Made by a program: the position numbers and the translations under genes
In this document: positions 372 through 49,200 of the stretch, in pieces
Position numbering within the stretch: the stretch's first letter is position 1
Layout of the letters: each line of letters opens with the position of its first letter
From: Stylophora pistillata
Lineage: Eukaryota
Direction: 5' to 3'
Assembly: GCF_002571385.2 (NCBI RefSeq)
Contig: NW_019218103.1
Coordinates: 145,752-209,751 of the forward strand
DNA: 64,000 nt
Notes under the pieces: model-generated
Seen by the model: the letters and a program-made list of their open reading frames with translations, nothing else
Told to the model about the DNA's origin: nothing
The model's database searches: none

Positions 372-1729
372 ATGGAGTAACTGCAAGTAGAAGCGCTACT
401 GTTTGATCTAGATAGGGCAGCCTAGCTGAAATGATAGATCTATTAGGAACCGAGGACGATGTAACGGGGAAAACTAAAATGCAGAGGATTAAAATTATCA
501 GGAAAGAAGTTGACAGTAAAATGGAAAGCGATGAAAAGGTCGCACGCACCTGTCTGGAACAACTACTCGCGTACATTAAAGCAACTGTACCTCGATCCTC
601 TCGAACAAACTGAGGAGACAGGGCCAAAAGTAGCTGCTGGAGTAAAGAGCGAACAAATGAGCGCCCAGGGAAAGTTAAAAAAAGGAACAAGTCGAACAAG
701 GGGCGGAGGATATTTTGGCTCAAATGGAGAAAACAAAAGCGGTCTCCTCGTTACTCCGTAGAGAATACAAACTTTCGGGACAGATTTGCGAACCAGGACA
801 GACAGAAAAATTGACCTTTGTGCCCTTAATGCATCAGATAGACTCTGGTCTTAACGTGGTTTAAAAGAAAGTGAAATTGTGGATGCCGTGATTTGTGCGA
901 TATCGCCCCATAGTAGTCTTAGAAATTATGGGGAAACATTAAGTGACCTCTCCCTCTCAAAATTACGGCGAATTCTGCGTGTCCACTACCGGGAGAAAGC
1001 TGCATCTGAGGTGTATCAACAGCTTGCAACCGTATGCCAACAAAGCAACGAGTCACCGCAGCAATTCCTACTCCGTGCTTTGGACCTGCGCAACAAGGTA
1101 AATTTTGCCGGTCAGGAATCGGATTGTGAATTTAACTATGGCCTCTCTCTGATCCAGAAGACATTTGTAAAATCCTTCGAAGCTGTTCTTCGTGATGATA
1201 TTTTAGCGTCCAACTTAAGAACCACCCTTCGTACCCCGGGGCTGACTGATGAAGAACTTATGAAACAAGTTAATGAACTAGCTTCACAGCAAGATGAGCG
1301 AACTACAAAATTGGCCACTGAACACCAAAAAAGGGCCAAGGTAAACGCTTGCGACGCCTTCAGGGAGGGAGGGGAACAGAGAGCCAGGAACCCAGGTTCA
1401 GACGAGAGCCAACAGATTCTTTATGAAACCCGGCAAATGAAATCAGAAATTAACGCCCTCACTGAAAGGTAGAGTTAATGCCCCAAACGGGTCAGAAGGT
1501 AAAACTAAACTGGGGCCGGTTCCCCTACGGAGACCATAAAGGTTGTTATCAGCCAAAGAACCCAAGCTGGGGATGTCAAAGTTGTAAAGAGCGTGGAAGA
1601 GGAGAGGAATGTGACCTTTGTTTCGCTTGTGGTATCTCAAGACATGTAGCTCGTGAGTGTACTAGAAGAAGGAATCAGGCCAGTCGGATGGGAAACGACC
1701 AGCGACTACTCAGGCGGGACACAGAATAG
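372..1729 (+). pseudogene. gag: Gypsy gag, frameshifted
   Basis: ORF pieces 431-613, 879-1472 (ESPQQFLLRALDLR) and 1478-1729 with zinc knuckle CFACGISRHVAREC. The ATG at 372 is followed two codons later by a premature TAA. Confidence 0.85.
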
Positions 1730-1808
1730 TCAACAGCAACAAATACAAGTCCCACCGATGTAACGGCTGTGGCCAAGTTCAGTTGGAGAGGGTAAAGTTG
1801 TTGTAATN

Positions 1809-2110
1809 AAACTCGACTGCGTAAAAAAATGGCAAATTCGATCGATTTGAAGGGGCAATTGGCAATGTTGCACGGTCTCAGCAGCTTTGTAATGTTGAAA
1901 TAAATCGTTTTTGCTACTAGACAGTCTCTTCCTTTTCTTTCTCTTACTGTAGCAAACCTAAGTGATAAAACGTGCCGTTCGGCGCATTAGCCCATCGTGT
2001 AATATATCATGAAGTGTCCTTCCCTTCTGTTTTTTTTTAGGGGGAGGGGAAGGGGGCGACTAAATTTTTTTTATGGTGACCATTTTATAATTGAGAGCGC
2101 TGCCTAGGGG
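1809..2110. mobile_element. Non-coding insertion (MITE-like end) between gag and protease, starting at an assembly N
   Basis: The pol reading breaks at the N at 1808 and resumes at ~2113. The segment ends in gagagcgctgcctagggg, a TIR-like terminus. The other end is lost at the gap. Confidence 0.4.
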
Positions 2111-2115
2111 TATGA

Positions 2116-3222
2116 TTGGTGGGGAAAAGCTGCACTGTTAAAGGAGAAATCAGTGATCATTCAGTAGATGTACTGTGGGACACATGGGCCCAGGTTTCGA
2201 TAATATCCAACGACTTCTTGAGGAGGAATTTGCCTGGTGTTGCTGTTAAAAATATTTCGGAATTACTCAACATTGAACTGAACTTGACTACTGTTAACGG
2301 TAGCGAGATGCCATTCGTCGGATTGGTGGAGCTAAATTTCAGACTGCCGTCTTACAAACATGATTTGAAAGTTCCATTTCTTGTTACGGAACAACATTTG
2401 GACTCACTGTTGATTGGTTTTAATATTATAGAAGAAATTATTAGAGATAATAATGGGGAAGTGGCGTTGTCCCAAGCTGTCGTCTCCAGCTTCCCTGACC
2501 TTGACAGCCAGACGGCTCCGGTATTTGTGAATTTTATAAAGAATCTTAATCAGGAGGAACTTTGCTTCGTTCGAACTAGCGAGCGTGACACCACTATACC
2601 ACCAAAGCAGAGTCAAAGAGCCACCTGCAGAGCAAACACGGGACCAGTGAGAAGACCTACGCCAGTGCTGTTTGAACCTGATGAGACCAGCCCATGGCCA
2701 AATGGTTTGGAGTTCTCCAAGACCCTGCTGACTGTAAAGAAAGGAAAATCAAGTCAAGTGGACATTGACATCACCAACAACACCATCCATGGGATCGTAC
2801 TTCGGGGACGGACCCTACTTGGCCGACTACAACTTGTCCAGTCGGTGACACCAGTTGAAGTGAAGACAAAAGAGCCTGATAGTAGTGCCAGCAACTCCCA
2901 ACCGAAGGGGGTACAGGTATCAGGGATTACAGAGCCAATCCAAACAGTTGATAAAGGGTTAGGAGGGATTCCGATGGAGAATCCATCGCATATCAGGGAC
3001 ATAGACCTGGAAGGTCTGACACCCGGTCAAAAAGAGATGGCTGTAAAGTTGCTTACGGAGGAGACTGATTCTTTTGCTAAAGATGATAATGATGTTGGAT
3101 GCATCCCTGACCTTGAACTTGACCTAGTTTTAGAGGACCAGACACCTGTACAGAAGAACTTTTTAGCAGTACCTAAACCACTCTACCCCCAGAGGTCAGG
3201 GCCTAAATTGAAGATTTCTTAA
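2116..3222 (+). pseudogene. pol: Gypsy pol: aspartic protease, spacer and start of RT
   Basis: VLWDTWAQVSII is the mutated DTGAQVS catalytic motif. The ORF ends in DVGCIPDLELDL..PVQKNF..VPKPLY, the RT N-terminus. Most of the RT core appears deleted downstream. Confidence 0.88.
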
Positions 3223-3813
3223 ACCGGAATTTTATAAAGAAATCATCATCCTCGTACAGCTCTCCGGAAATCGAAAATGTAAATTGTTTAAGGGAGAGGT
3301 GACATACCTCGGGCGCAATGTGTCGGAAGAGGGTTACAAGCTAGATCCATTCAGTATTAAGCCTGTCTTTGCACTCAGAGACTCGGCTCCAAAGACAGTT
3401 AGTGTAGTGCGCAGACTTATAGGTTTCCTGAACCGGTGGTTTTCATAGGTTTTTTCATAGGTTTTCTTATAGGTTTTCTTATAGGTTTCCTGACCGGCGA
3501 TATGTTAAAGACTTTTTCTAGAAGTGCCAAGCCTATCTATGATCTGGTGATGACACCTAGTCGCTCTCCGCAGCAAGTTCAGCTGGACGAACCTAGGAAG
3601 GACCGCAGTAACAATGGCCAATTACCGACAAAACACCCGCCGGATTGGACTGACATTCATCAATCTGCCTTGCGGACTCTTATCGACTCCATCACAAGTG
3701 CTCCGGTAATGGCGTATCCTGACTTTCAGAAACCATTCGTTCTCCATACAAACGCCTCAAAGGATGGCTTGGGCGGCGTGTTGTATCAGTATCAGGATGA
3801 CATTCTCCGTGTT

Positions 3814-4440
3814 ACGTATGATGCACGATCCTCGCAGTAGATAGCGCTATTTAAGCAATAGCGAAAATCAGACCTGAAAAAAATCAGGCCTGTACGGGAT
3901 TCGAACCACTGACCTCTCCGATACTAGTGCAGCGCTCTACCAATTGAGCTAACAAGCCAACTGGGAGCAGGCCGTTAAGTTGATTCGTAATAAACCCGTG
4001 AAAGTGATAAATAAGATACAATGAAATATATGAAGTTCACATATTTTGAACTGCTGTATTAGATACGTATGATGCACGATCCTCGCAGTAGATAGCGCTA
4101 TTTAAGCAATAGCGAAAATCAGACCTGAAAAAGATCAGGCCTGTACGGGATTCGAACCACTGACCTCTCCGATACTAGTGCAGCGCTCTACCAATTGAGC
4201 TAACAAGCCAACTGGGAGCAGGCCGTTAAGTTGATTCGTAATAAACCCGTGAAAGTGATAAATAAGATACAATGAAATATATGAAGTTCATATATTTTGA
4301 ACTGCTGTATTAGATACGTATGATGCACGATCGAATTTCGCTATTGCTTAAATAGCGCCATCTACTGCGAGGATCGTGCATCATACGTATCTAATGCCGC
4401 AGTTCAAAATATATGAACTTCATATATTTCATTGTATCTT
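3814..4440. mobile_element. tRNA-derived mobile repeat: two 251-bp head-to-tail units, a short third start and an inverted ~105-bp terminal copy, with a 12-bp TSD
   Basis: Units start at 3814, 4065 and 4316. 4336-4440 is the reverse complement of the unit junction. ATTCTCCGTGTT is duplicated at 3802-3813 and 4441-4452. Confidence 0.88.
3886..3958 (-). ncRNA. tRNA-like Pol III unit (pseudo-tRNA, loop CTAGTAT, Thr-like), second copy at 4137-4209
   Basis: GGCTTGT/ACAGGCC acceptor stem, A-box TAGCTCAATTGGTAGAGC, B-box GGTTCGAATCC, followed by a T-run. The anticodon and T stems are imperfect. Confidence 0.7.
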
Positions 4441-5021
4441 ATTCTCCGTGTTGTCGCATACAGGTCGCGCAACTTGACTCCAGCCGAGAAGAATTATCAT
4501 TTCCATTCCGGGAAATTGGAATTCTTAGCCCTCAAATTGGCTATCTGCGATCAGTTTCGATACTATCTCTATTGCGCACCAAGTTTTAAAGTGTTCACCG
4601 ATAATAATCCACTCACCTATGTCTTATCCTCAGCAAAATTGAATGCCACCGGTTTGCGCTGGATTGGAGGGTTAGCTGATTTCAATTTTATCATACACTA
4701 TCGCCCAGGAAAAGCCAACGTTGATGCCGACGCTTTATCTCGAATGCCTTTTGAGGACACAGCTACGCAGAAATAGTACCACAGGAGGTCCTTCAGGCCG
4801 TTGTATTTTCGGCAAAATCTCAAGACCGAGGACAAGTGAACTGGTTGTCTGCCCTTATAGGAGACCACACCGTCTTAACGACTGACCCATTTAGAAATGA
4901 AGAATTCACAGCACCAAGGATTGACCTGAAGCGCGCACAAGCCACTGACCAGGTCGTTTGTCGAGTGAGGGATTTAATCTAGCGTGGTCAACAACCACCA
5001 ACAGCATAGAGAAAACGTGAG

Positions 5022-6180
5022 TTGGCTGAGACGCAACTTCTCCTGCATGAATGGGATAAACTATCCCTTGACGAGGATGGCCTACTAAGACGCCGTAAAG
5101 GAACTAGGACTGAAGTTATTGTACCCAGACTGCTTCGTTCACGCATCCTCAAGGAATTCCACGAAAACATGGGTCATGTTGGGGTGGACCGCACACTAGA
5201 CCTCGCTAGAGAGCGCTTCTATTGCCCCGCATGCAGCGAGATATTGAACACCATATTGGACATGTCTGTCAATGCGCAAAACAAAAAGCCCCCTCGCTTA
5301 AGACTACAGCCCCACTAAATCCCATTGTGACTACCTCGCCTTTTGAGCTTATCGCCATCGACTTCCTTCATTTGGAGAAGAGTAGAGGAGGGTACGAATA
5401 TATTCTCGTTGTGATAGACCATTTTACACGCTACGCCCAAGCTTATGCCATGAGAAACGAGTCAGCTAAGACAGTTGCCCAGAAACTTTACAATTATTTT
5501 ATTTTGCGGTTTGGTTTTCCGTTCAGAATTCACCATGATCAAGGGGGAGAATTTGAAAATTACCTTCATCGGGAGCTCGAGAGGCTGTGCGGCGTGGAAC
5601 ATTCTCGCACTACCCCCTATCATCCCCAAGGGAACGGTCACTGACTTGAGCACTTCAACCGGACACTTTTGGGAATGCTCCGTACCTTGCCAGAGACCCA
5701 AAAATCACGTTGGGCAAAACACTTGAACCCCGTGGTATACGCTTATAAATGCACGAAACACGAATCAACCTCCTCTTCGGCCGCCACCCCCGTTAGCCGG
5801 TAGACTTGATGTTTGGAACTGAAGATGAAACCAACCACGTGAACCATTCACAATATGTCGAGAAGTGGCGAAAAGCAATGACAGAGGCTTACAAATTGCA
5901 ATTGGCAGGCAAGAAGTCCAGTAAAGCAGGCACACGAGCCAAACAACGTTATGACCGTTTTGTACGAAGTTCTATATTGCTACCTGGTGATCGAGTTCTT
6001 TTACGCAATCTAAGAGAACGGGGTGGACCGGGGAAGCTGCGCGCGCATTGGGAGAATCAGATTCACATAGTCGTTAGCCGTAAGGGAGAAGATAGCCCTG
6101 TGTATGAAGTCAAGCCCAATGCTGGCACTGGGAGGAACAGAACCCTACATAGGAACTTGCTATTGCCATGCAATAATCTT
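5022..6180 (+). pseudogene. pol: Gypsy integrase (zinc-binding and DDE core), frameshifted
   Basis: FHENMGHVGVDRT..RERFY, CQC, PFELIAIDFLHLE, DHFTRYAQAY, IHHDQGGEFEN, TTPYHPQGNG, C-terminal GPGKLRAHWE..LHRNLLLPC. Confidence 0.9.
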
Positions 6181-8558
6181 CCATTAACATCCCAAACGGA
6201 ATTAGTCAGAGGAGAGAAAGAAGGATCGGGAACTATAAGCGTAACACTGCTTGTCAGATACCTGTACCACAGGCCGAAGACTTGGAAGATGGCACTTGTA
6301 GTAATGATGAATATACAATCACCCCAGGGAACCCCTACCATGGGCGGACCGTAGAAGGGGCGGTTACAGAGGAGCTCGCCAAATCTTCGGTTAAAGAGAA
6401 ACAGCCTAAACCGACACAGTCGGAGGATGCAATATCGGACAACGCCCATCGAGGGAAAGTAATCAGCGATCGCACTGTTTTGGGAGAGACGAAAGAAAGC
6501 GGATTAGAGAACGGAAATGGCCAAGATCCCCTAACCCAGGATAACAACAGCTCACCAGACAGTCCCGAACTGAACCTCGGCCTAAACGACAGAGACACCC
6601 ACCAGCAGTTCTGACGTACAACACACTTGGCAATCCCATGTATGAGACCCAAGCTGCTGTACACGTCATAGCCGCCGACAGTGTTTCTGGAAGTCAATTA
6701 CCCCAGTGCGGCACTTCTAATCTTCATTGAAGAACAGGTTTGCCAACTGTAAAGCAGTTTCAGCTACCCCCATACCCACCTTTGTCCCAGTATCCAGTAA
6801 TCTTTGGCTACCTGGGAACGTACCTGCAGTATCCACCCATGCCTCCACCTGTGTTCCATCCGGTTAACCAGTTCCCTGCTCCCTCACCTATCATGTATCA
6901 GCCAAGGAGTGACGTGATGCAAGTACCCGTAGCCATGAACTCTGGGCACATACCTGTACCCGGCTTTGTGTCTTAAGCGAACTTTTAGTGAACAAGGTTG
7001 TTTAAAAAAATGCACTTAGATTTACGTCTGAGTTCCCATACTTCCAAATGATGCGATTGTATCCTATGGACAGGAGATGCTACCATGGATTTCAGTTGCT
7101 GTAGCCTTTTATTAGAGATTGACACGTCAGGATCCTATTATTTCACAAGAAGATATGTGTAACCTTCAGTATCATTCCCCTTTACGGGCGTGAAACCTAT
7201 GCATGTGTGCTATTCACGTACGCCTATTTAGGTGCAAGTGTCAGGGACGACAATTTTCTTCGAGGGGGAAGTTTGTTAGGGAGTAAACGTAATGGAAACA
7301 TGTGACTTTTGACGTAGCGACATCTGGGACAGTTACAAAAAAGCTGTTGTAGTTTTGTAAAAAGAAACAAGAAATACATTCTTCTAGAAGCGTTAGTTAT
7401 TAAGAGTTCTTTGTGGTTCTTGGAGTACGGATAACAGTTGTTGAGCAAATTTATTTTGATCCTAACTTCTGGTAAACTGCTGTCCATTATTTGAGTCACT
7501 TCTATTACAAATTATTTTTGCCTAAATATGTTGCCATTTAGGAGTATGCATGCAGACAAGTGAGGCAGTAGACAGAATACAAATGTTTATTTTAAGAAGA
7601 TCTTTCAAAATGACATTTGGTTTGACAACCTTTCATGTATGCATGTACTAGCTACAGTAAGGCCTTGTCTATATGATCTTGGAAACCCGAGACAGCCCTG
7701 CCTCCCCCTGAGACAACTGCACATAGTTTTAAAGCACTTACATGAATTTACCATACTAGGGGTGGTAAAAGATTGACAAGTGCCACTATCACAACAAGTA
7801 TGTCACTTGCACTGTGTACCAAATCTAGTTTGCAAGTTGTGTTGAGTATATGGAACTTTTTCATTTGACTAATGACATGTTCCACCTGTCAATTAAAAAA
7901 GAACAAAATCCATTGTAGCTATGTTTTGTGTGGTTATCACTTTCAAATAATTTTTAATTTTGATAATATACCACATTGAACTGTTACATGGTAGAAAGCT
8001 ACATAACCAGAGCAAATTTGGATATGGAATGTTTTTTCTATTAAATGTTACAATAATCAACTCAGCGGTAAATCAGTCTGAAAAGGATCAAAATGGTATT
8101 TGACTTGAAAGCTGCCCACTTACCATCAAGAGTACAAAAGCATAAAGTCATTTAAACGTACAAAAACATTTTTCATTTAATGTTTTACCCATGTAAAACT
8201 CAGGAACTTTGACTGTTTTGTGTTGTATGTACATGTGTACATGTAAATGCTAGTGCTTCCATCACGGCCTCTGAAGCTGGTATTTCTTGCATGGATTCTG
8301 ACATTTGCAATTTTCCTTGATGTCATCACTTCTGTCATCTTCAGCTGGTTTTCCCTTTGATAAAAGCTGGAATGACAAGGCTAGCACCTCCACATGGAAG
8401 TTCATCCTTAATCAGGAATCTTGTCAGCCTTAACTTCTTGTGAAACCATTTGAATAAATGCTCATTAAAATGATGTATAAAATTACATGTAACTTCCTTG
8501 TTTGAACAAAATAATATTATTATGGGTAACTAAGAACTGATTGCAGGTAAATGAATAA

Positions 8559-14149: not shown

Positions 14150-14378
14150 CCCCAACCCACCCATCCATCACACAGTAATAGTACGTGGGAAATTAACGTC
14201 TCCTACCCCTAACCCTATTCGTCCGAAACCGAGAAGACATTTCTTGATGTAATAGAAAGGTAGCATATTCTTCTCAATCATTTAAAGACCTTGGGTATTG
14301 GTCCGGCTGGGGCTCGAACCCTCGACCTCCCACACAACAGTCCAGCGCTCTATCCATTGAGCTAATCGGGAGGCGGCG
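14150..14378 (-). mobile_element. tRNA-derived SINE
   Basis: Minus strand reads TAGCTCAATGGATAGAGCG (A box) and GGTTCGAGCCC (B box), followed by a SINE-like body. Confidence 0.7.
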
Positions 14379-17300
14379 GTTACATGTGTCAATATTGTGT
14401 AAATTAAGCGCCCCGCTCTTGTGATTGGCTCTTGGTTGGGCGGAGAAAGTTAGCTAAATTCCTGCTTTGGGTGGAACTCGCCCGTAGACGCCTTGCCTCT
14501 CTGACTGCTTTTGTCTGCTCGAATTCGAATCCATTGAGACAAGATGGACACCCTAAAAACTCTGATTCTTCTTGTGCTGGTAACTGGGACTATTCAAATA
14601 GCAGTCTCTGGTAAATGATGAGAATTGTACCTTAATTGTTTATGATGATTGAGTTATAGGATCCATGGCTTTGATTATCAAAGTAGTGCCCAGCATGATG
14701 GGACAAATACGATTTACAGCTAGTTTCGCGTGAAATGAGACCATGCTTTCAAGAGGCTTCCCTCTTCTGAAGATCCTATTAGAAGCAATGGGCCGTTGCG
14801 GCTAAGAAATGATATTGGAATCCGCTTTGAAATGAAACGAAGAGTCTCAAACGCTCCAACTAACGTATATTTCTGTTTTACTTCCCAATTCCCTTTGCAT
14901 AGGGAGAAAGAAACATTGCAGCTGTTACCGCTTACCCAACATTGCTACAATTGGAAGTGGTAAATTTATTTGATTGTAACTATCATACAGAATTAACGGT
15001 CGTGTGTTTCATCTCTATGACGAGTTTATCTTTGATTTATTTGGAAATGAAGAGTCAAGAAGTATTACGCAGATGCCAATCCTTGTTTAACACAAATGTC
15101 CTGACTTCAATATGAATTAACTCATTTAATCAAATATGAGGGCAGTTAACTTAATATTCCTTTACATTTACAACGGTGAATTACAGAATCTGTTCTTTTC
15201 ATCGAATTCAAGTTTTCTTCAACTCAATATTCTTTTGCATCTATAACGGTGACTTACAGAATAGTGCATATTCTGTTATTTTCATCGAATTTTAGGTCGA
15301 GCAGATACAAAGTGATTACGTAGGTTTGCTCGATTTTTGACACCTAAATACTTTTCATATGAAGTATAATGGTTTGTCTAACAATCTTAAGGCAACGACC
15401 ATATTTTTATATATAAGAACGTGGCTTCACCACGGTAGCAAACCGTAACAATTTTCATGTTATTGACCTCAATAATTTTCAAGATGTCCGGCATACCATT
15501 TGCCTTTCTACAAACACAAAGCGAAATGGCTGCAAGAGGTCAAAGTTATCACTTCCTTGCGTGTTCTTTAGTTGGCTTTTAGGGGAAAATGGAGAGCATC
15601 AACAAAGAAAAACGACTTTTTTAAATCAACTAACGCTTGAAAGGCAAACTCTTACGTTTTTCGAAAGTCTCAAGGCATCGATCGGTTAACTCCTCAGCTC
15701 AGCATGCGAACTAACTGGGAATGTCAAGCAAAATGCGCTTTTGTCTTGCAGAGGAAGATTAGAGAAATTCGCAGAGTTTATAAACACGTGCGTATAGCCA
15801 TGTTCATATTCATTAGATCCATTGTCTGCCACGTTTTCGTTTCCAGGATTACAAGGGGTTCCAATCGAGAGTTGTCCGTGGTATTGTCGCGTGATTATCG
15901 CTGTTAGGTAACGGTGTGTTTCCCACCTTTTCAACTGGACAAAATTGATCAAAAAGCAACGTGGAACAGGCTCTTTTCACCTCGCATTTTTTGGGATAGT
16001 CTTCTTTGTGGAATTAAATATGTTATTTGGACCGAGAAAAAAATTGAACTTGCGTCAGGAATTGTTCTCCTCTTTGCTAGTGCCGAACGGCAAGGAATAC
16101 CAATGTTAATCGGGTAATTTTTGATTGCATGCAAGATGATTCACTTTGGCTACAAACCAAGTGCTCAATTTCCAATCGACTTGAAACTTGAAAACCACCA
16201 TCTCATCCCTTTAGACGGCATTGCGCAACATTAAAGCTCACTATGAGACAGCCACGTTGAAAGAATTCATTTTGTTCGGAATTTTTCTATTTACGCAATC
16301 GACATTCATGACTCAGTTTATTTAGGAGCTCTTTTAGCAGTACAAAGATGTGCACTAAAGTTACGTATTTGAAATAATTTGGAACGTCTCGTCTCGTCCT
16401 TGTAATACTGCATAGCACAGACATTGAAAACAGAATGGCGTTCTGTTGGTTGGACGGTAATTTTCTAGAGTTTCGAAACCGCTCAAAAATACTTTGCCCT
16501 ACAGCCATCCCACGAAGCCCGAACAGAAAATTGAAAGATTGAAACGCCTCGTTTGAAGCACGTCTTATAATGTTATATGAAAAAGACATTGAAAACAAAA
16601 TGGCGCATTGTAACGATGCATCATGCTTCTTTAGCCATAAGGCACTGATGTCAACTATCAAAATCAGCAAATGAAATAAGTTTAAACAAGGAGTCATCTC
16701 TTTCATCAACCACACATCCCTTTTAATAAATCAACCAGACTGGGGAATGATACGAACACGAAAACTTAGAAATCAGTATATGCGTGAATAATCAAGGTAC
16801 CCTCTAGCAAATGCTGAGAAATCCTCGCTCTACAGTTTGTTACATCCAGTTGCCGCGAGCTTTCATTAAGCGTTTTTCAAGAAAGGGCATTTTATTTACG
16901 TTTTTATGAAAAACTCTTCTGTCTCTTGTGTCATCCCTCGTTCTCAAAGATTGCAGATAATGTGGACCTCGATGGCCCTTTATTCAATCTTTAGTTCATC
17001 CGAGAATTTCACTTCAATAATCCCTTAAAATACTCTATTGTGTCTTCTGTCATCTCTCGTTCTCAAAGATTGCAGACATGCGGACCTCGATGGGCCTTTA
17101 TTCAATCTGCAGTTCATCAAGGAATTTCATATCGAGAAAACCTTGTTCTGCACCTCATTATACAACTGATTACCGCGAGGTATTGTTAAGAGTCCTAACA
17201 GATAGAAAAGAGTCAACAAGAACAAAGGTAAAAAAGTTGCCCTGTATTAAATCTGTAGTTCATCCGAGATTTTCGTGTACTTAGAACCAGTTCAAACTAA

Positions 17301-20632: not shown

Positions 20633-23600
20633 TTCGATGCTACAAGAGACCGGCACACTGCAAACAAAATTGCGCATTGCGAGGATGCATCGTGGTTCTT
20701 TAAACATTGGGTACAGAGATGAACTATCATGCGAAATCGGCAAGAGAAATGGGTTTAAACAAGGAGTTGTTTCTTTTATCAACCTTTTTCCTTTCTATTC
20801 CCTTCAATAAATCAACTAGGCTTTGGCGTAATGATAGGAACGCAAAAATTTGGGAATCAGCAGACTTTTGAATAATCCAGGTACTTTCAAGCAAATGTCT
20901 AGAAATCCTTGCTCTTCAGTTTGTTACATTCAATTAGCACGAGCTTTTATTGTTTTTTTAGGCAACTAATAAAGATGTCTTGTGGTACATACTAGAATAG
21001 AACAATAGAATGCAGAGCCACTTATTTCCATTTTTTATGAAACACACTAGTGTCTCTTATGTCATTCCTCTTTCCCAAAGATTGCAGATAATGTGGACCT
21101 CGATGGCCCTTTTTACAATATGTGGTTTATCCGAGAACTTTTTGTCGAGAAATCCTTGAATCACACCACTTTCTCTTCTGTCATCCCTCGTTCTCAAAGA
21201 CTGCAGATAATATGGACTTCGATGGCCCTTTGTTCAATCTTTAGCTCATCCGAAAACTTAATTTCGAGAAACCCTTAAACCACTCTATTGTCTCTTGTGT
21301 CATCCCTCGTTTCTGAAAGATTGCAGATATTATGGACCTTGATGGCACTGTATTCAATCTGTAGTTCATCCCAGAAATTTATACACCAATAACTTGGTGA
21401 GGCGAAGTCACACTCTTATTCTAAATTCTCAGTGCTACTGGTCTTAACTTCAAGGAAACACTCTTATAAATTAATATTTTAACTTACCTTCTCGTTAAAT
21501 ACAGAGTCCTCATTTTTTGGGAAAAACATATATATATAGAAAGACAGAAGAGCTAAACACCTATGAAATGGATAGCATTCGATTTAAAAACCAATCCGAA
21601 AACAAAGGAGCGAAACTAGAGAAGAAGACTGTACTTTTGCGGTGAACACTAAGCCTGCAGCAGAACCATGATATTTACTTCTTCTCACTCGTCTTTCTTT
21701 GTCTCTAGATGCACGAGGTTGAAATCTTAAACTACTACCAGACACTTATTCTTATTCAGGTTGCTCGTGCGGGTTGAAAGATCTTGTTTTGAGCACGTCT
21801 TAAAATGCTACATCAAACGGACACACTGCAAACAAAATGGTGCATAAAAACGATGCAATATGGTTTTTTAGACATAAGGCACTGGTATCTATTATCTTGC
21901 AAAATCGGCGGATGAGATAGGTTTAAAGCAGGAGTCATCCCTTTTACCAAGCTTTTTTCTTTTTGTTCCTTTCAATAAATCAACCAGACTTTTGGCGTAA
22001 TGATTGAGGAAAACGAGAATTTGGGAGTCAGCAGACTCTTGAATTATCTAAGTACATTAAAGCAAATGTCAAGAAATCCTTATTCTGCAGCTCGTTCCAT
22101 CCAATTACCACGAGCTTTTATCAAGAGTTTTTCAAGAAAAGTAAAGAAGATGTCTTGTGATGCAAACTAGAATAAAACTATAGAAAGCAGGGCCACTTAC
22201 TTACATCTTTATGGAACACACCAGTGTCTCTTATGTCATCCTTTGCTTTCAAAGATTGAAGATAGTTTGAACCTCGATGGTGGCCCTTTATTCACTCTCA
22301 GCTCATCCGAGAATTTTATGCACTTATAACTAGTTTGAGCTACACTTTCATACTGAAATTCAAGTGCTACTGAAATCACCTCAACAAGTGACTACTACTG
22401 ATCTTAAACGTAAATATATCCCGGCTTCTTGAAAACAAGCTTATTAAAGAAGCTAGGAGGTAAACGCTTTGCCTCTGGTTTATCCAGGATATTTTCTTAG
22501 TCATTTTAAGACACTTTCTATGCCTATACACATGCACGAGGTCGAGTTCTCGATTTGATTTTTTATGATTATTTCTCACTCAGGTTCCTTGTGCACGCTG
22601 AACCTCTGCAAGAAAAAACAAACTCCACAACTTACTATTAGCTCGAACGCGCACAGATGCATTCTGATGTAAGTTTACGCATCTTGGATTAGGGTTTCTT
22701 TAGCCAAAATTAACATAGCAACCTTACCTAAATTGATTTGTGTTCAGACACTGATGACGATGCAATTAACATTTTTTCAAGCGAGAAATATCACAAACAT
22801 GAATAGAGCCTTGTTGAAAGCGACCTCAATGAGGAAATTCAGGAGTCAATGGCACACAGTACCCTCAATCTCTCAAATCCCATAAGAAATCAAGATAAAA
22901 CAGTTTATTACCCTGGTACACGGTGTGTATTATGAGGTACGATACATAATTCCGATTTGTTTTGAGTTTTTTTAGCTCCCTCATCGCGTTAGGGGCATTG
23001 GTCATTTCCACCAAGACGTGTACTACATTCTGACTTCTAAATACGTCTGTGTGGTAGTTTCTGCCAACAGCTGGTATCTCAGCTAATTCTCCCAATGTCT
23101 GCACCCACATTGAATCAAGTTACGCGACAAAGAGCTGAGAAAAACTGCAATGAAAGAATACATTTAATATCTTCGACTTTATCTCTACTTATGTACGAGG
23201 TTGAAATCTTAATTTTCTAGCAGAGACCTATACACATTTTGGTTGCTCGTGCGCGTTGAAATATCTTGTTTAAAGCACGTCCTAAAATTATGATGCTACA
23301 AGAGACGGACACACTGCAAACAAAATGGCGCATTGCAACGATGCATTATGGTTCTTTAACATAAGGCGCTGGTGTTAACTATCACTGATGCGAAATCGGC
23401 AAGTGGTTTCAACAAGAAGTAATCTCTTTAATCAACCTTTTTTTATTTTATTCCTTTTAATAAATTAAACTAGACTTAAACGTAATGATAGGAACACAAA
23501 AACTTGGGAATCAGCACAATTATAAATAATTAAGATACCTTCAAACAAATGTCAAGGATTACCACAAGCTTTTCCTACGAGTTTTTCGAGGAAGGTAAAA

Positions 23601-46200: not shown

Positions 46201-49200
46201 ACGATTCACCATGTTCATAAAATATTTTATTGGACCAATACATGACTTTTATGGGTACTCCATTAAGGTACTCCATAGGGTACTCCATGGAGTAGGGCTC
46301 CGCGTTTTGCCATCTCCCGTGTAGTTTGGTGTAGTAGGTGTAATTTAGTGTAGTAAATATAGTTTGGTGTAGTGTAATGTAGTAGGTATAGTTTGGTGTA
46401 CTTTGGTGTAGTTTATGTGTAGTAGGTGTATTTTAGTGTAGTAAGTATAGTTTTGTGTAGTGTAATGTAGTAGGTGTAGTTTGGTGTAGTTTGGTGTAGT
46501 TTGTTGTAGTGGGTGTAGTAGGTGGAGTCTGGTGTGTAAGTGTAGTTAAGTGTAGTAGATGTCGTTTGGTGTGGTAGGGATTGTTCCGTATATTGGGTGT
46601 AGTGTGGTGTAGTTTGGTGTAGTGGGTGTAGTAGAAGTAGTTTGGTGCAGTAGGTGTATTTTAGTGTAGTTTGGTGTGGCAGGCGTAGTTCAGTTTAGTT
46701 TGGTGTGGTAGGTGTAGTAGGTGGAGTAGGTGGAGTTTGGTGTAGTAAGTATAATTTAGTGTAGTTTGGTGTATTTGGTGTATTTTGGTGCAGTAGGTGT
46801 AGTAGGTGTAGTTTGGTGTAGTAGGTGTGTTTTAGTGTAGTAAGTATAGTTTTGTGTAGTGTAATGTAGTAGGTGTAGTTTGGCGTAGTGGGTGTAGTAG
46901 GTGTAGTTAAGTGTAGTAGATGCCGTTTGGTGTGGTAGGGATTGTTCCGTATATGAGGTGTAGTGTGGTGTAGTTTGGTGTAGTAGGTGTACTAAGAGTA
47001 GTTTGGTGCAATAGGTGTATTTTAGTGTAGTTTGGTGTGGCAGGCGTAGTTCAGTTTAGTTTGGTGTGGTAGGTGTAGTAGGAGTAGTTTGGTGTAGTAG
47101 GTGTAACTTAGTATAGTTTGGTGTAGTAGGTGTAGTTTAGTGTATTAATTTGGATATATCAACAAAGTTGAAATGGTAAATTGGCCACTGTAACGATTAC
47201 AAAAGCTGACGTTTCGAGCGTTAGCCCTTCGTCAGAGCGAAAGTAGTTTAATGTAGTTTGGTGTAGTAGGTGTAGTTTGGTGTAGTAGTTGTAGTTTGGT
47301 GTAGTTGCTGTAGCAGGTGTTGTTTGGTGTAGCATGTTTACTTTAGTGTGATACGTGTAGTTTGGTGTAGTAGGGGTTGTTGTGTATATGAGGTGTAGTT
47401 TGGTGTTGTAGGTGTAGTTTGGTGTAGTAGGTGTAGTTTAGTGTAGTTTGGTGTAGTAGGTGTAGTTTGGTGTAGTAGGTGTAGTTTGGTGTAGTAGTTG
47501 TAGTTTGGTGTAGCAGTTGTAGTAGTTGTTGTTTGGTGTGGCATGTTTAGTTTAGTGTAATAGGTGTAGTTTGGTGTATTAGGGGTTGTTCTGTATATTA
47601 GGTGTAGTTTGGTGTAGTAGGTGTGGTTTGGTGTAGTAGGTGTAGTTTGATGTAGTAGGTGTAATGTGGTGTAGTTTATTGCAGTAGGTGTATATTGGTG
47701 TGGTAGGTGTAGTCTGGTGTAGTAGGTGTAGTTTGGTGTAGTTGGTGTATTTTGGTGCAGTAGGTGTAGTAGGTGTAGTAGGTGCGGTTTGGCGTAGTTG
47801 ATGTAGTAGGTGTAGTTTCGTGTAATTTGGTGTGGTAGATATAGTTTGGTGTGTTAGGTGTACTTCGGTGTAATTTAGTGTGGTAGCTGTAGTTTGGTAT
47901 AGTAGGTGTTTTTTAATGTATTAGGTGTAGTTTGGTGTGGTTTGGTGTAGTAGGTGTAGCTTAATGTAGTAGGTGTAGTTTGGTGTAGTTTGGTGTATTA
48001 GGTGTTGTAGATATAGTTTGGCGTAATAGGCGTAGTTTGGTGTACTTTTGTGTAGTTTGGTGTAGAAGGGGTAGTTTAACATAGTTTTATGTAGTAGGTG
48101 TAGTTTTATGTAGTAGGTGTAGTTTTATGTAGTAGGTGTAGTTTGATGTACTAGGGGTAGTTTGGTGTAGTAGGTGTAATTTGGTGTAGTAATCAAACAG
48201 CCACTACACCTACTACACCAAAATACACCTACTACACCTACTAAACCAAACTATGACTGCTACATGAAACTACACTTATTACACTCAACTACCACTAAAC
48301 CACCAATCTACACCTACTTCACCAAGCTTCACCAAACTACACTAAACGACACTAACTACACCTACTACACCTACTACACCTACTACACCAAACTACACTA
48401 AACTACACTTACTACACCTACTACAACTACTACATTAAACTACACCAAACTACACCTACTAGATCAAACTACACTTACTACACCTGCTACACCTACTGCA
48501 TCTTCTACAGTTACTACACCAAACTACACTTACTACATCTACTGCACCTACTACACCAAACTACACCTACTACATCTTCTACACCTACAACACCAAAGTA
48601 CACCAAACTACACCTACGACATCTTCTACACCTACAACACCAAAGTACACTAAACTACACCTACTACACTTTATTCTAGATTGTGTTACATAACAAGCGT
48701 TGGTTTTTTTTCACTTAGATAGCGTAGAACCTTGTTTTATATTCGTGATGGTAATAATGGATCTATTAACATGTGTGACCATGAGTGTAGATGGAGCGGC
48801 AAGATCTAAGGAGCCGCAAAAGGTTTACGAGTTAGTCGAAAAAGCTGTTCTCTCGTCAACTAAACTAAGTATATACCCAAGGTTGTTAAACATATTTGTA
48901 AACCTATTAGACAGTCGGAAGAGTGATGTGTTTTTCAAAATTTTATAAGTTATCTATTGTGTTGGTGGAACAAGAGTTGAAGATTGTATTGCATTCTACT
49001 TTAGGCCGTCCAAGTCGAAGCTTAGTTATAAGAAAGTTCCTGTTCGTGTCAACAAACTAAACGAGAGTTTGCCAATAATGCGCAAAAAAGTAGGTTTAAC
49101 GCGAAAGACGAGTCATAGTCTTGGTGTTACTTGGGCATCGTCGTTGTTTTTTAAATGCAGGTGTAAAAGAGAAATTAATAATAGCTAGAACTGAACACCG

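Follow-up and report, generated by a model that had tools for sequence, protein, structure and literature searches.

A tRNA-bearing tandem element of the coral Stylophora pistillata with an insertion footprint like that of Penelope-like elements

The insertion in the window and its target

The window is the whole 64,000-nucleotide stretch of Stylophora pistillata contig NW_019218103.1 that was analysed (positions 145,752 to 209,751, forward strand), and the subject of this report is a tRNA-bearing tandem element inserted near its left end, together with the repeat family to which it belongs. The element is bracketed by a 12-bp direct repeat (3802-3813 and 4441-4452). It consists of a head-to-tail array of 2.07 units of 251 bp that are 99% alike (3813-4332), followed by an inverted copy of 111 nt (4333-4443) that is 95% complementary and overlaps the target site duplication (TSD) by its last 3 nt. 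Two tRNA-like domains lie on the minus strand (3886-3958 and 4137-4209; Thr-AGT according to ARAGORN), with an Rfam tRNA match of 40.1 bits against a gathering score of 29. A CCTGA/TCAGG hairpin with a T-run begins 3 nt past each domain, the run being seven T in one copy and T-C-T5 in the other. In the window, the element lacks a poly(A) or microsatellite tail and its ends abut the TSD.

Positions within the unit are numbered from the 5' end of the tRNA-like domain (u1, window position 4209, minus strand). Since this domain lies on the minus strand, both outer boundaries are 3' ends: the left one, 3813, falls at u146 and the right one, a different 3' end, at u197-200, and the 5' ends of the two arms meet at 4332/4333. 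An earlier note, made from the sequence of the window, had described the 12-bp TSD, the 251-bp units, the cloverleaf followed by a T-run within a hairpin, and the missing tail, all of which were found as described. It had also recognised the inverted copy, but put its length slightly short, at about 105 bp, and its claim that the units start in the middle of the unit does not hold, since 3813 is where the minus-strand unit ends (u146).

The sequences on either side of the element match consecutive stretches of the Pfam RT_RNaseH_2 profile (5-52, then 56-96). Thus, the element landed in a decayed Ty3/Gypsy pol gene, and the TSD is a real target duplication. Decayed Ty3/Gypsy sequence extends over 855-6354 of the window; its gag-like, protease-like, RNase H and integrase-like pieces lie in different frames, and the Pfam comparison was made for the RNase H piece. 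No open reading frame (ORF) of at least 80 amino acids was found inside the element, nor any that codes for reverse transcriptase (RT) and GIY-YIG as in an autonomous Penelope-like element (PLE). A further fragment of the same tRNA-bearing family (u176-239, minus strand, 91%) is present at 1-60 of the window, adjoining an assembly gap. The features of the insertion are as follows.

3802..3813, no strand: left TSD, 12 bp, its last base common to the element end (direct-repeat search)
3813..4332, minus: tandem arm with 2.07 251-bp units, running from a 5' truncation at u129 (4332) to the short fixed 3' site at u146 (3813)
4333..4443, plus: inverted arm, from u90 to the long fixed site at u197-200; holds a 'tail' of about 50 nt that is absent at the other outer end
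4441..4452, no strand: right TSD (direct-repeat search)
4137..4209, minus: tRNA-like domain, u1-73, with intact A and B boxes, a 7-bp acceptor stem, two T-stem mismatches and a private change at u41
3886..3958, minus: second tRNA-like domain (ARAGORN, Rfam)
4174..4179, no strand: self-complementary hexamer (u31-36) of the anticodon loop; pairing with its counterpart in the adjacent unit is predicted
3923..3928, no strand: self-complementary hexamer of the second unit (sequence)
4122..4141, minus: T-run hairpin, u69-88, its 5' arm being the 3' acceptor strand; the T-run seems to resemble an RNA polymerase III (Pol III) terminator
4096..4114, minus: 6-bp hairpin, u96-114, whose stem sequence varies among subfamilies with pairing kept (consensus alignment)
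4014..4089, minus: putative RT-recognition region, in which a conserved stem (u121-126/u155-160) holds the short end (u146, 4064) and is followed by an AT-rich hairpin and the long end (u196, 4014)
3959..4001, minus: 'anti-tRNA' segment, u209-251, with predicted pairing to two tRNA domains, in the T arm of the one upstream and in the D arm of the one downstream
3652..3810, plus: host element, opening stretch of the RNase H domain in the decayed Ty3/Gypsy pol (Pfam)
4444..4776, plus: host element, a later stretch of this RNase H domain (Pfam)

Insertion record of the family and probable Penelope-like mobilisation

The tRNA-bearing tandem element is real, abundant and young. Exact matches to a 23-mer from its T arm number 7,230 in the 398-Mb genome, which is a lower bound on the number of family copies there, against none for the reversed control; subfamily-specific motifs have 4,456 and 4,554 matches. 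Overall identity between two young subfamilies, with units of 251 and 247 bp, is about 83%, and their tRNA domains are identical. Older copies are present too, for example at locus L314, where a single old copy (1501-1573) in a tRNA-rich contig scores 66 bits as tRNA-Thr(GGT). In a metagenome scan at least 120 stretches carried the unit; among the matches listed, 88 of 126 belong to four further subfamilies and 38 are left over. These metagenome subfamilies are probably host DNA of other corals. Unit length ranges from 244 to 254 bp, the TSD mode is 12, and a scan of viral contigs for the unit gave no matches. Genome-wide, Rfam tRNA candidates number 43,618. Copies of the family inflate coral tRNA gene counts, whatever the fate of the splicing model considered below.

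Insertions were mapped at 191 loci, 119 in a first set and then 72 as an independent set. They were chosen as the best DNA hits or as the pattern matches listed first; pieces shorter than 40 nt or below 85% identity were discarded, and the windows that define the short (u140-153) and long (u186-203) ends were fixed after the first loci had been seen. Tabulated over these loci, the starts, inversions and TSD lengths that the earlier note had proposed to collect genome-wide revealed two fixed 3' ends and a head-to-head arrangement in 89 of the 191 insertions, the others being single-orientation (101) or tail-to-tail (1). Outer 3' ends were short in 122 cases, long in 119 and elsewhere in 22, so that 241 of 263 lie at two sites 50 nt apart. 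Among 77 gap-free head-to-head insertions, 58 paired a short with a long end, one paired two long ends, none paired two short ends, and 18 had one end elsewhere. Short and long ends are therefore paired in 58 of 59 classifiable head-to-head insertions (16 of 16 in the second set alone), and this strictness suggests an RT dimer whose subunits work on one site and one strand each. A TSD of at least 9 bp was found in 56 of the 77 gap-free head-to-head insertions, and 66 of 81 TSDs overall were 12-14 bp long. Target sites are AT-rich with a weak dyad-symmetric preference (n = 37), an A standing two bases left of the TSD in 26 of 37 and a T two bases right of it in 27 of 37. Two tiny insertions made of scraps of the tail and the short end, with short direct repeats as judged by eye (L116, 3771-3809; L081, 3379-3466), are minimal products of the same insertion reaction.

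The 5' ends of the arms behave differently from the fixed 3' ends. Ninety arms are at least 300 nt long, the longest reach 2.6-2.7 kb, and homogeneous arrays run to 10 units. From u1, 167 of 245 arms continue into the preceding unit, and 5' ends at the tRNA start (u249-3) were no more frequent than expected (4 of 196 uncensored ends, against 4.6). Peaks were seen at the palindromic hairpins u102-106 and u160-167, which fits with microhomology joining of two complementary DNAs (cDNAs). In the first set, 5' ends were scarce at u11-50, which was not repeated (14 against 9.8). No 5' ends at u35-40 appear in the tables of either set, and linear monomers cut in the anticodon loop are thus not evident as templates.

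tRNA-derived short interspersed elements (SINEs) have a tRNA-related head with A and B boxes, and the Pol III boxes of the domain studied here might suggest a standard SINE moved by a long interspersed element through twin priming, or a SINE-derived satellite expanded in place. SINE-derived satellites do exist (PMC10702118; here and below, cited papers are represented by excerpts of their text), and they share with the coral element a tRNA-related domain with boxes and tandem arrays, though they arise differently from it. The end tables contradict this explanation: 5' ends are not in excess at the tRNA start, a tail is lacking, the two fixed 3' ends lie inside the unit, and dispersed copies arrive as whole arrays, each within one TSD and with PLE-type ends, with none of the head-to-tail anatomy of a SINE. 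We therefore consider it very improbable, and the view of the earlier note that the element is not a standard SINE is borne out.

The footprint matches that of true PLEs in the same genome, which holds many elements with RT and GIY-YIG. Thirteen inverted PLE arrangements served as a control: five had a 12-13-bp TSD and an extension of one arm (23-30 nt in four clean cases), one had 9 bp and no extension, one was obscured by local repeats, and six were without the footprint. PLE insertions are known for 5' truncation, partial tandems, a frequent inverted 5' copy and a 30-40-bp tail at one end (PMC8557442). With Poseidon protein in vitro, both target strands are nicked and reverse transcription begins at two internal sites that delimit the tail; the Poseidon hammerhead was not required (PMC11167929). 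The coral element thus resembles endonuclease-positive PLEs (Penelope/Poseidon, Neptune, Hydra and Naiad) in its 5' truncation, partial tandems and inverted 5' copy (PMC8557442, PMC11167929), in its one-end tail and two RT start sites, and in a TSD length equal to that of PLEs of this genome. It differs in having no ORF and in a tail of about 50 nt, against 23-30 and about 90 nt in the PLE families seen. At loci L385-L405, a young family of PLEs whose core resembles a hammerhead has two 3' ends about 90 nt apart; tail length thus differs widely among PLE families within one genome.

From this comparison we conclude that the element was very probably moved by PLE machinery, as the earlier note had put forward as a possibility for a non-autonomous element. 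The conclusion draws on the pair of fixed 3' ends, each used once per inverted insertion, on TSDs of 12-14 bp and on the like footprint of true PLEs in this genome. In such a reaction, a PLE protein dimer would in all likelihood nick both target strands 12-14 nt apart, reverse transcription would begin at two internal sites, u146 and u196, one per strand, and the two cDNAs would be joined at their truncated ends, often at hairpins. What weighs against PLE mobilisation is that an autonomous partner was not found in 80 PLE loci of this genome, and that no PLE ORF was found beside 120 metagenome loci, among the matches listed. The search for a partner was done by tblastn with two PLE proteins and by a Pfam GIY-YIG search, and in the PLE searches 148 of 1,142, 131 of 2,051 and 150 of 1,590 candidates were scored. 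None of the PLEs at the 80 loci has the unit as a terminal repeat, and no sampled PLE end shares sequence with it. At one locus (L110, 5792-5889) a truncated unit (u90-186) is fused to the 3' end of an intact-looking PLE. The fusion is missing in another copy of this PLE (L109), and we set the case aside as a one-off, possibly due to a template switch.

Independently of any splicing model, thousands of short copies provide a natural record of PLE integration, in which the 58 of 59 pairing points to one RT start per target strand. The one-per-strand use of the start sites known in vitro can now be addressed with an RNA of 250 nt.

The RNA template and the role of the tRNA-like domain

Because the cDNAs pass through the tRNA domain, the template was probably an uncut multimer or a circle. 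With 167 of 245 arms passing u1 and no excess of ends there, neither monomers cut by RNase P nor Pol III transcripts started at u1 are the usual template, and the insertion record, with its fixed 3' ends and arms that run through the tRNA, backs the claim of the earlier note that the element is copied from multimeric or circular RNA. Units within an arm are nearly identical, often with common private variants: they diverge by 0.67% on average (median 0.29%, 28 arms), the two arms of one insertion by 0.46% (11 comparisons), and different insertions by 2.1%. Such near-identity is as expected for a circle and a homogeneous array alike, so that divergence does not appear to separate the two. At five loci (L009, L279, L331, L332 and L338) the 5'-most unit differs at linked positions, much more strongly in L279, which suggests a late jump to another RNA molecule during synthesis.

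Thousands of assembled RNA contigs from several studies contain the unit, and flanking Gypsy bins had no cover in three RNA runs. Adapter joins, one exactly at u1 and one at u45, are too few to use.

The earlier note had considered cutting by RNase P/Z possible; on this reading, one or both enzymes would release the cloverleaf from multimers and so give monomers or circles. The 7-bp acceptor stem, with pair 7:66 changed on both sides among subfamilies, is in keeping with this idea, as are the single adapter join at u1 and an excess of 5' ends at u73-77 (11 against 4.61 expected in the two sets combined, p = 0.008 uncorrected). The excess comes from the first set (9 against 3.35) and was not replicated in the second (2 against 1.32, at low power), where there were also no ends at u249-7. 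Moreover, u73-77 is also the loop of a palindromic hairpin, and the peaks at the other hairpins (u102-106 and u160-167) are stronger; most arms pass u1; and the cloverleaf is predicted to be absent in multimers. Seamless circles made by these enzymes would leave no footprint, and the idea is thus only weakened; overall, we regard it as improbable.

The tRNA domain is 88-93% identical between subfamily consensuses, against 45-70% in other segments, its first 14 nt having been part of the search pattern behind these figures. Judged from its sequence, it is not a working tRNA: position 31:39 is mismatched, relatives carry C33, and it is not a canonical tRNA-Thr. Among 17 other tRNA genes sampled as possible parents, the best comparison gave 52 of 73 matches; the single Ile gene among them did not bear out a likeness to tRNA-Ile. 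Four tRNA genes with encoded CCA on very short contigs (L286, L297, L308 and L309) are likely to be bacterial contigs in the assembly. No hammerhead core was found on either strand of 10 unit and consensus sequences, nor was there a ribozyme match in Rfam; twister and HDV-like folds, judged by eye against their consensuses, were dropped. In predicted folds (z = -4.2 against shuffles), the two halves of the tRNA domain both pair with u209-251, and the 3' acceptor strand is taken up by the T-run hairpin, which thereby competes with the cloverleaf for this common strand.

A reading somewhat less likely than the one favoured below is that the tRNA domain serves as a Pol III promoter or chromatin opener and nothing else, that uncut read-through transcripts of arrays are the template for PLE mobilisation, and that no circle exists. 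A and B boxes that appear intact, a SINE-like feature, and a terminator-like T-run after them are present in all six subfamily consensuses, the unit occurs in thousands of RNA contigs, and one of these joins an adapter exactly at u1. PLE RT starts internally, and ribozyme cleavage is dispensable in vitro (PMC11167929). The u1 contig is single, with the second join at u45, and conservation extends beyond the boxes over the acceptor and anticodon arms; the palindromic loop and the 31:39 mismatch would go unexplained. With about one truncation per 300 nt, read-through would shorten arrays in each round, yet arms reach 2.6-2.7 kb, so some length-restoring step appears to be needed.

In the anticodon loop, hexamer u31-36 reads ACTAGT in this genome, where 351 of 413 motif matches agree exactly with the consensus arm; overlapping loci, true tRNAs and repeats of other kinds are counted among the 413. 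It reads ACCGGT in metagenome relatives (C33 in 63 of 70, G34 in 60 of 70); each version is self-complementary, and 31:39 is mismatched in both. A predicted split fold, 2.4 (subfamily A) and 1.6 (subfamily B) kcal/mol above the minimum, joins the 5' half of one domain to the 3' half of the next in an arm with two 3-nt bulges and a 4-6-bp helix. Exactly one unit would lie inside the arm as an 'intron', and the inner halves would be masked by the anti-tRNA segment. In 53 real two-unit stretches folded with flanking repeat, the probability of the inter-unit loop helix exceeded 0.5 in 44 (median 0.93), and the median for a single cloverleaf was 0. The native spacer beat 25 of 25 shuffles in three of four units of this genome without the u41 change, and 22 of 25 in the fourth; an old decayed copy showed no gain over shuffles. 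Inter-unit pairing of the acceptor was discarded as evidence, being equally likely with shuffled spacers. In animal pre-tRNAs, a C-G first pair with 6 nt to the cut and a 3-nt bulge is found, and RtcB circularises the intron (PMC6614914); the C32-G35' register is predicted to satisfy this geometry.

We therefore favour, with a probability of roughly 0.4, processing by the tRNA splicing endonuclease (TSEN) and RtcB, which would yield unit-length circles; as a model, it fits better than RNase P/Z. In a transcript of at least two units, the 5' half of one tRNA domain would pair with the 3' half of the next through the palindromic loop, cutting at the two 3-nt bulges would excise exactly one unit, and RtcB would close its ends, as with tRNA intronic circles. 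The circles could then serve as the template, the tRNA mimic taking the place that the hammerhead has in retrozymes, and a Penelope RT dimer could roll round the circle from two fixed starts, making new arrays.

Several points weigh against the splicing model. The circle, the cut site and the action of the enzymes are predicted from folding, and the RNA evidence consists of assembled contigs, which bear no strand, level, end or circle information. In the short Pol III-like form, which does allow the tRNA body to fold, the inter-unit helix exceeded 0.5 in 23 of 53 stretches only (median 0.27), and in the window's own copy, which has the private change at u41, it was 0.01; many of the 53 stretches are near-identical and hence not independent. 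In the single metagenome unit folded, out of four stretches, shuffled spacers did equally well (13 of 25). The T7 run after the first tRNA domain should halt most Pol III transcripts. For the long transcript, folding predicts no tRNA body, the part by which the eukaryotic endonuclease normally knows its substrate, and the T stem has two mismatches in both young subfamilies of this genome. A genuine tRNA-Thr(AGT) gene of this genome (L298) has CTAG at 32-35, and the palindrome may therefore be inherited in part; moreover, double CpG decay, which turns CG into TA, can link the two loop states, the only two seen. An over-strong helix between anticodon and intron hinders splicing (PMC6614914).

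The self-complementary loop could also be an RNA dimerisation signal, a kissing loop by which two units are held together for use by the RT dimer, or it could belong to an unrecognised self-cleaving motif that cuts without protein. The predicted energy of pairing between two anticodon arms is -13.6 and -17.1 kcal/mol, against -2.7 for the single hairpin, both start sites are used in nearly all inverted insertions, and dimeric hammerheads with a palindromic stem have been reported in retrozymes (PMC7229834). We consider this unlikely: a self-cleaving motif is opposed by the lack of a hammerhead core (10 sequences, both strands) and of any Rfam ribozyme match, and on either version the kept acceptor stem and D arm would be unexplained.

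Put in series, disguise as pre-tRNA, circle formation by TSEN and RtcB, and insertion of arrays by a Penelope RT dimer would make the family a class of ribozyme-free retrozyme-like parasites, a combination that we put forward tentatively, with some doubt. If it were true, a mobile element would be making its circular template by the host tRNA-splicing pathway instead of a ribozyme, and the hammerhead of retrozymes would be a replaceable processing module.

Related systems and other repeats in the window

The element works like an animal non-long-terminal-repeat (non-LTR) retrozyme without the defining hammerhead, and it falls outside SINEs as well. Animal non-LTR retrozymes carry a type I hammerhead in each unit, and their circles have been shown (PMC7229834; bioRxiv 10.64898/2026.07.22.740005). 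The coral family shares with them non-coding tandem units of 150-450 bp (220-245 in Acropora millepora), low GC and longer TSDs (PMC7229834; bioRxiv 10.64898/2026.07.22.740005), its own TSDs exceeding 4 bp; highly self-paired RNA, a proposed dependence on PLEs and circles closed by RtcB, here predicted, are common to both. It differs in having a tRNA mimic upstream of the RT starts instead of a hammerhead, and its circles are predicted only. The word 'tRNA' occurs nowhere in the excerpted text of the retrozyme preprint (bioRxiv 10.64898/2026.07.22.740005).

The schistosome repeats Sm-alpha and Sj-alpha are likewise high-copy, tRNA-related and SINE-like, and swamp tRNA gene prediction; they contain a hammerhead, unlike the coral family. 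Sm-alpha joins a tRNA-related part to its hammerhead and provides a precedent for a tRNA-derived part in a retrozyme-like element (PMC2770079). tRNA intronic circular RNAs (tricRNAs) have in common with the predictions made here a C-G first pair, a cut 6 nt away from it, a bulge of 3 nt and the route through TSEN and RtcB; they come from single immobile tRNA genes, whereas the putative 'intron' of the coral element would be a permuted whole repeat unit (PMC6614914). In the literature searched, which lay outside subscription journals, Repbase and Dfam, we found no description of a ribozyme-free tRNA-bearing PLE parasite or of a mobile element using the splicing endonuclease; the sequence may well be catalogued under another label. 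The excerpted text of a sea anemone repeat paper (PMC12070523) held nothing relevant.

Another tRNA-headed repeat is found at 14314-14365 of the window and at locus L116 from position 6088. It is about 77-81% alike in the head only, has an unrelated body, and looks like an ordinary SINE. Two related arrays with units of 118/119 bp lie at 16909-17129 and 21038-21371. Between 40443 and 48669 there are several long arrays with a strong GC skew, made of GTGTA-type units of 9-10 bp; the last of them (48203-48669) is inverted.

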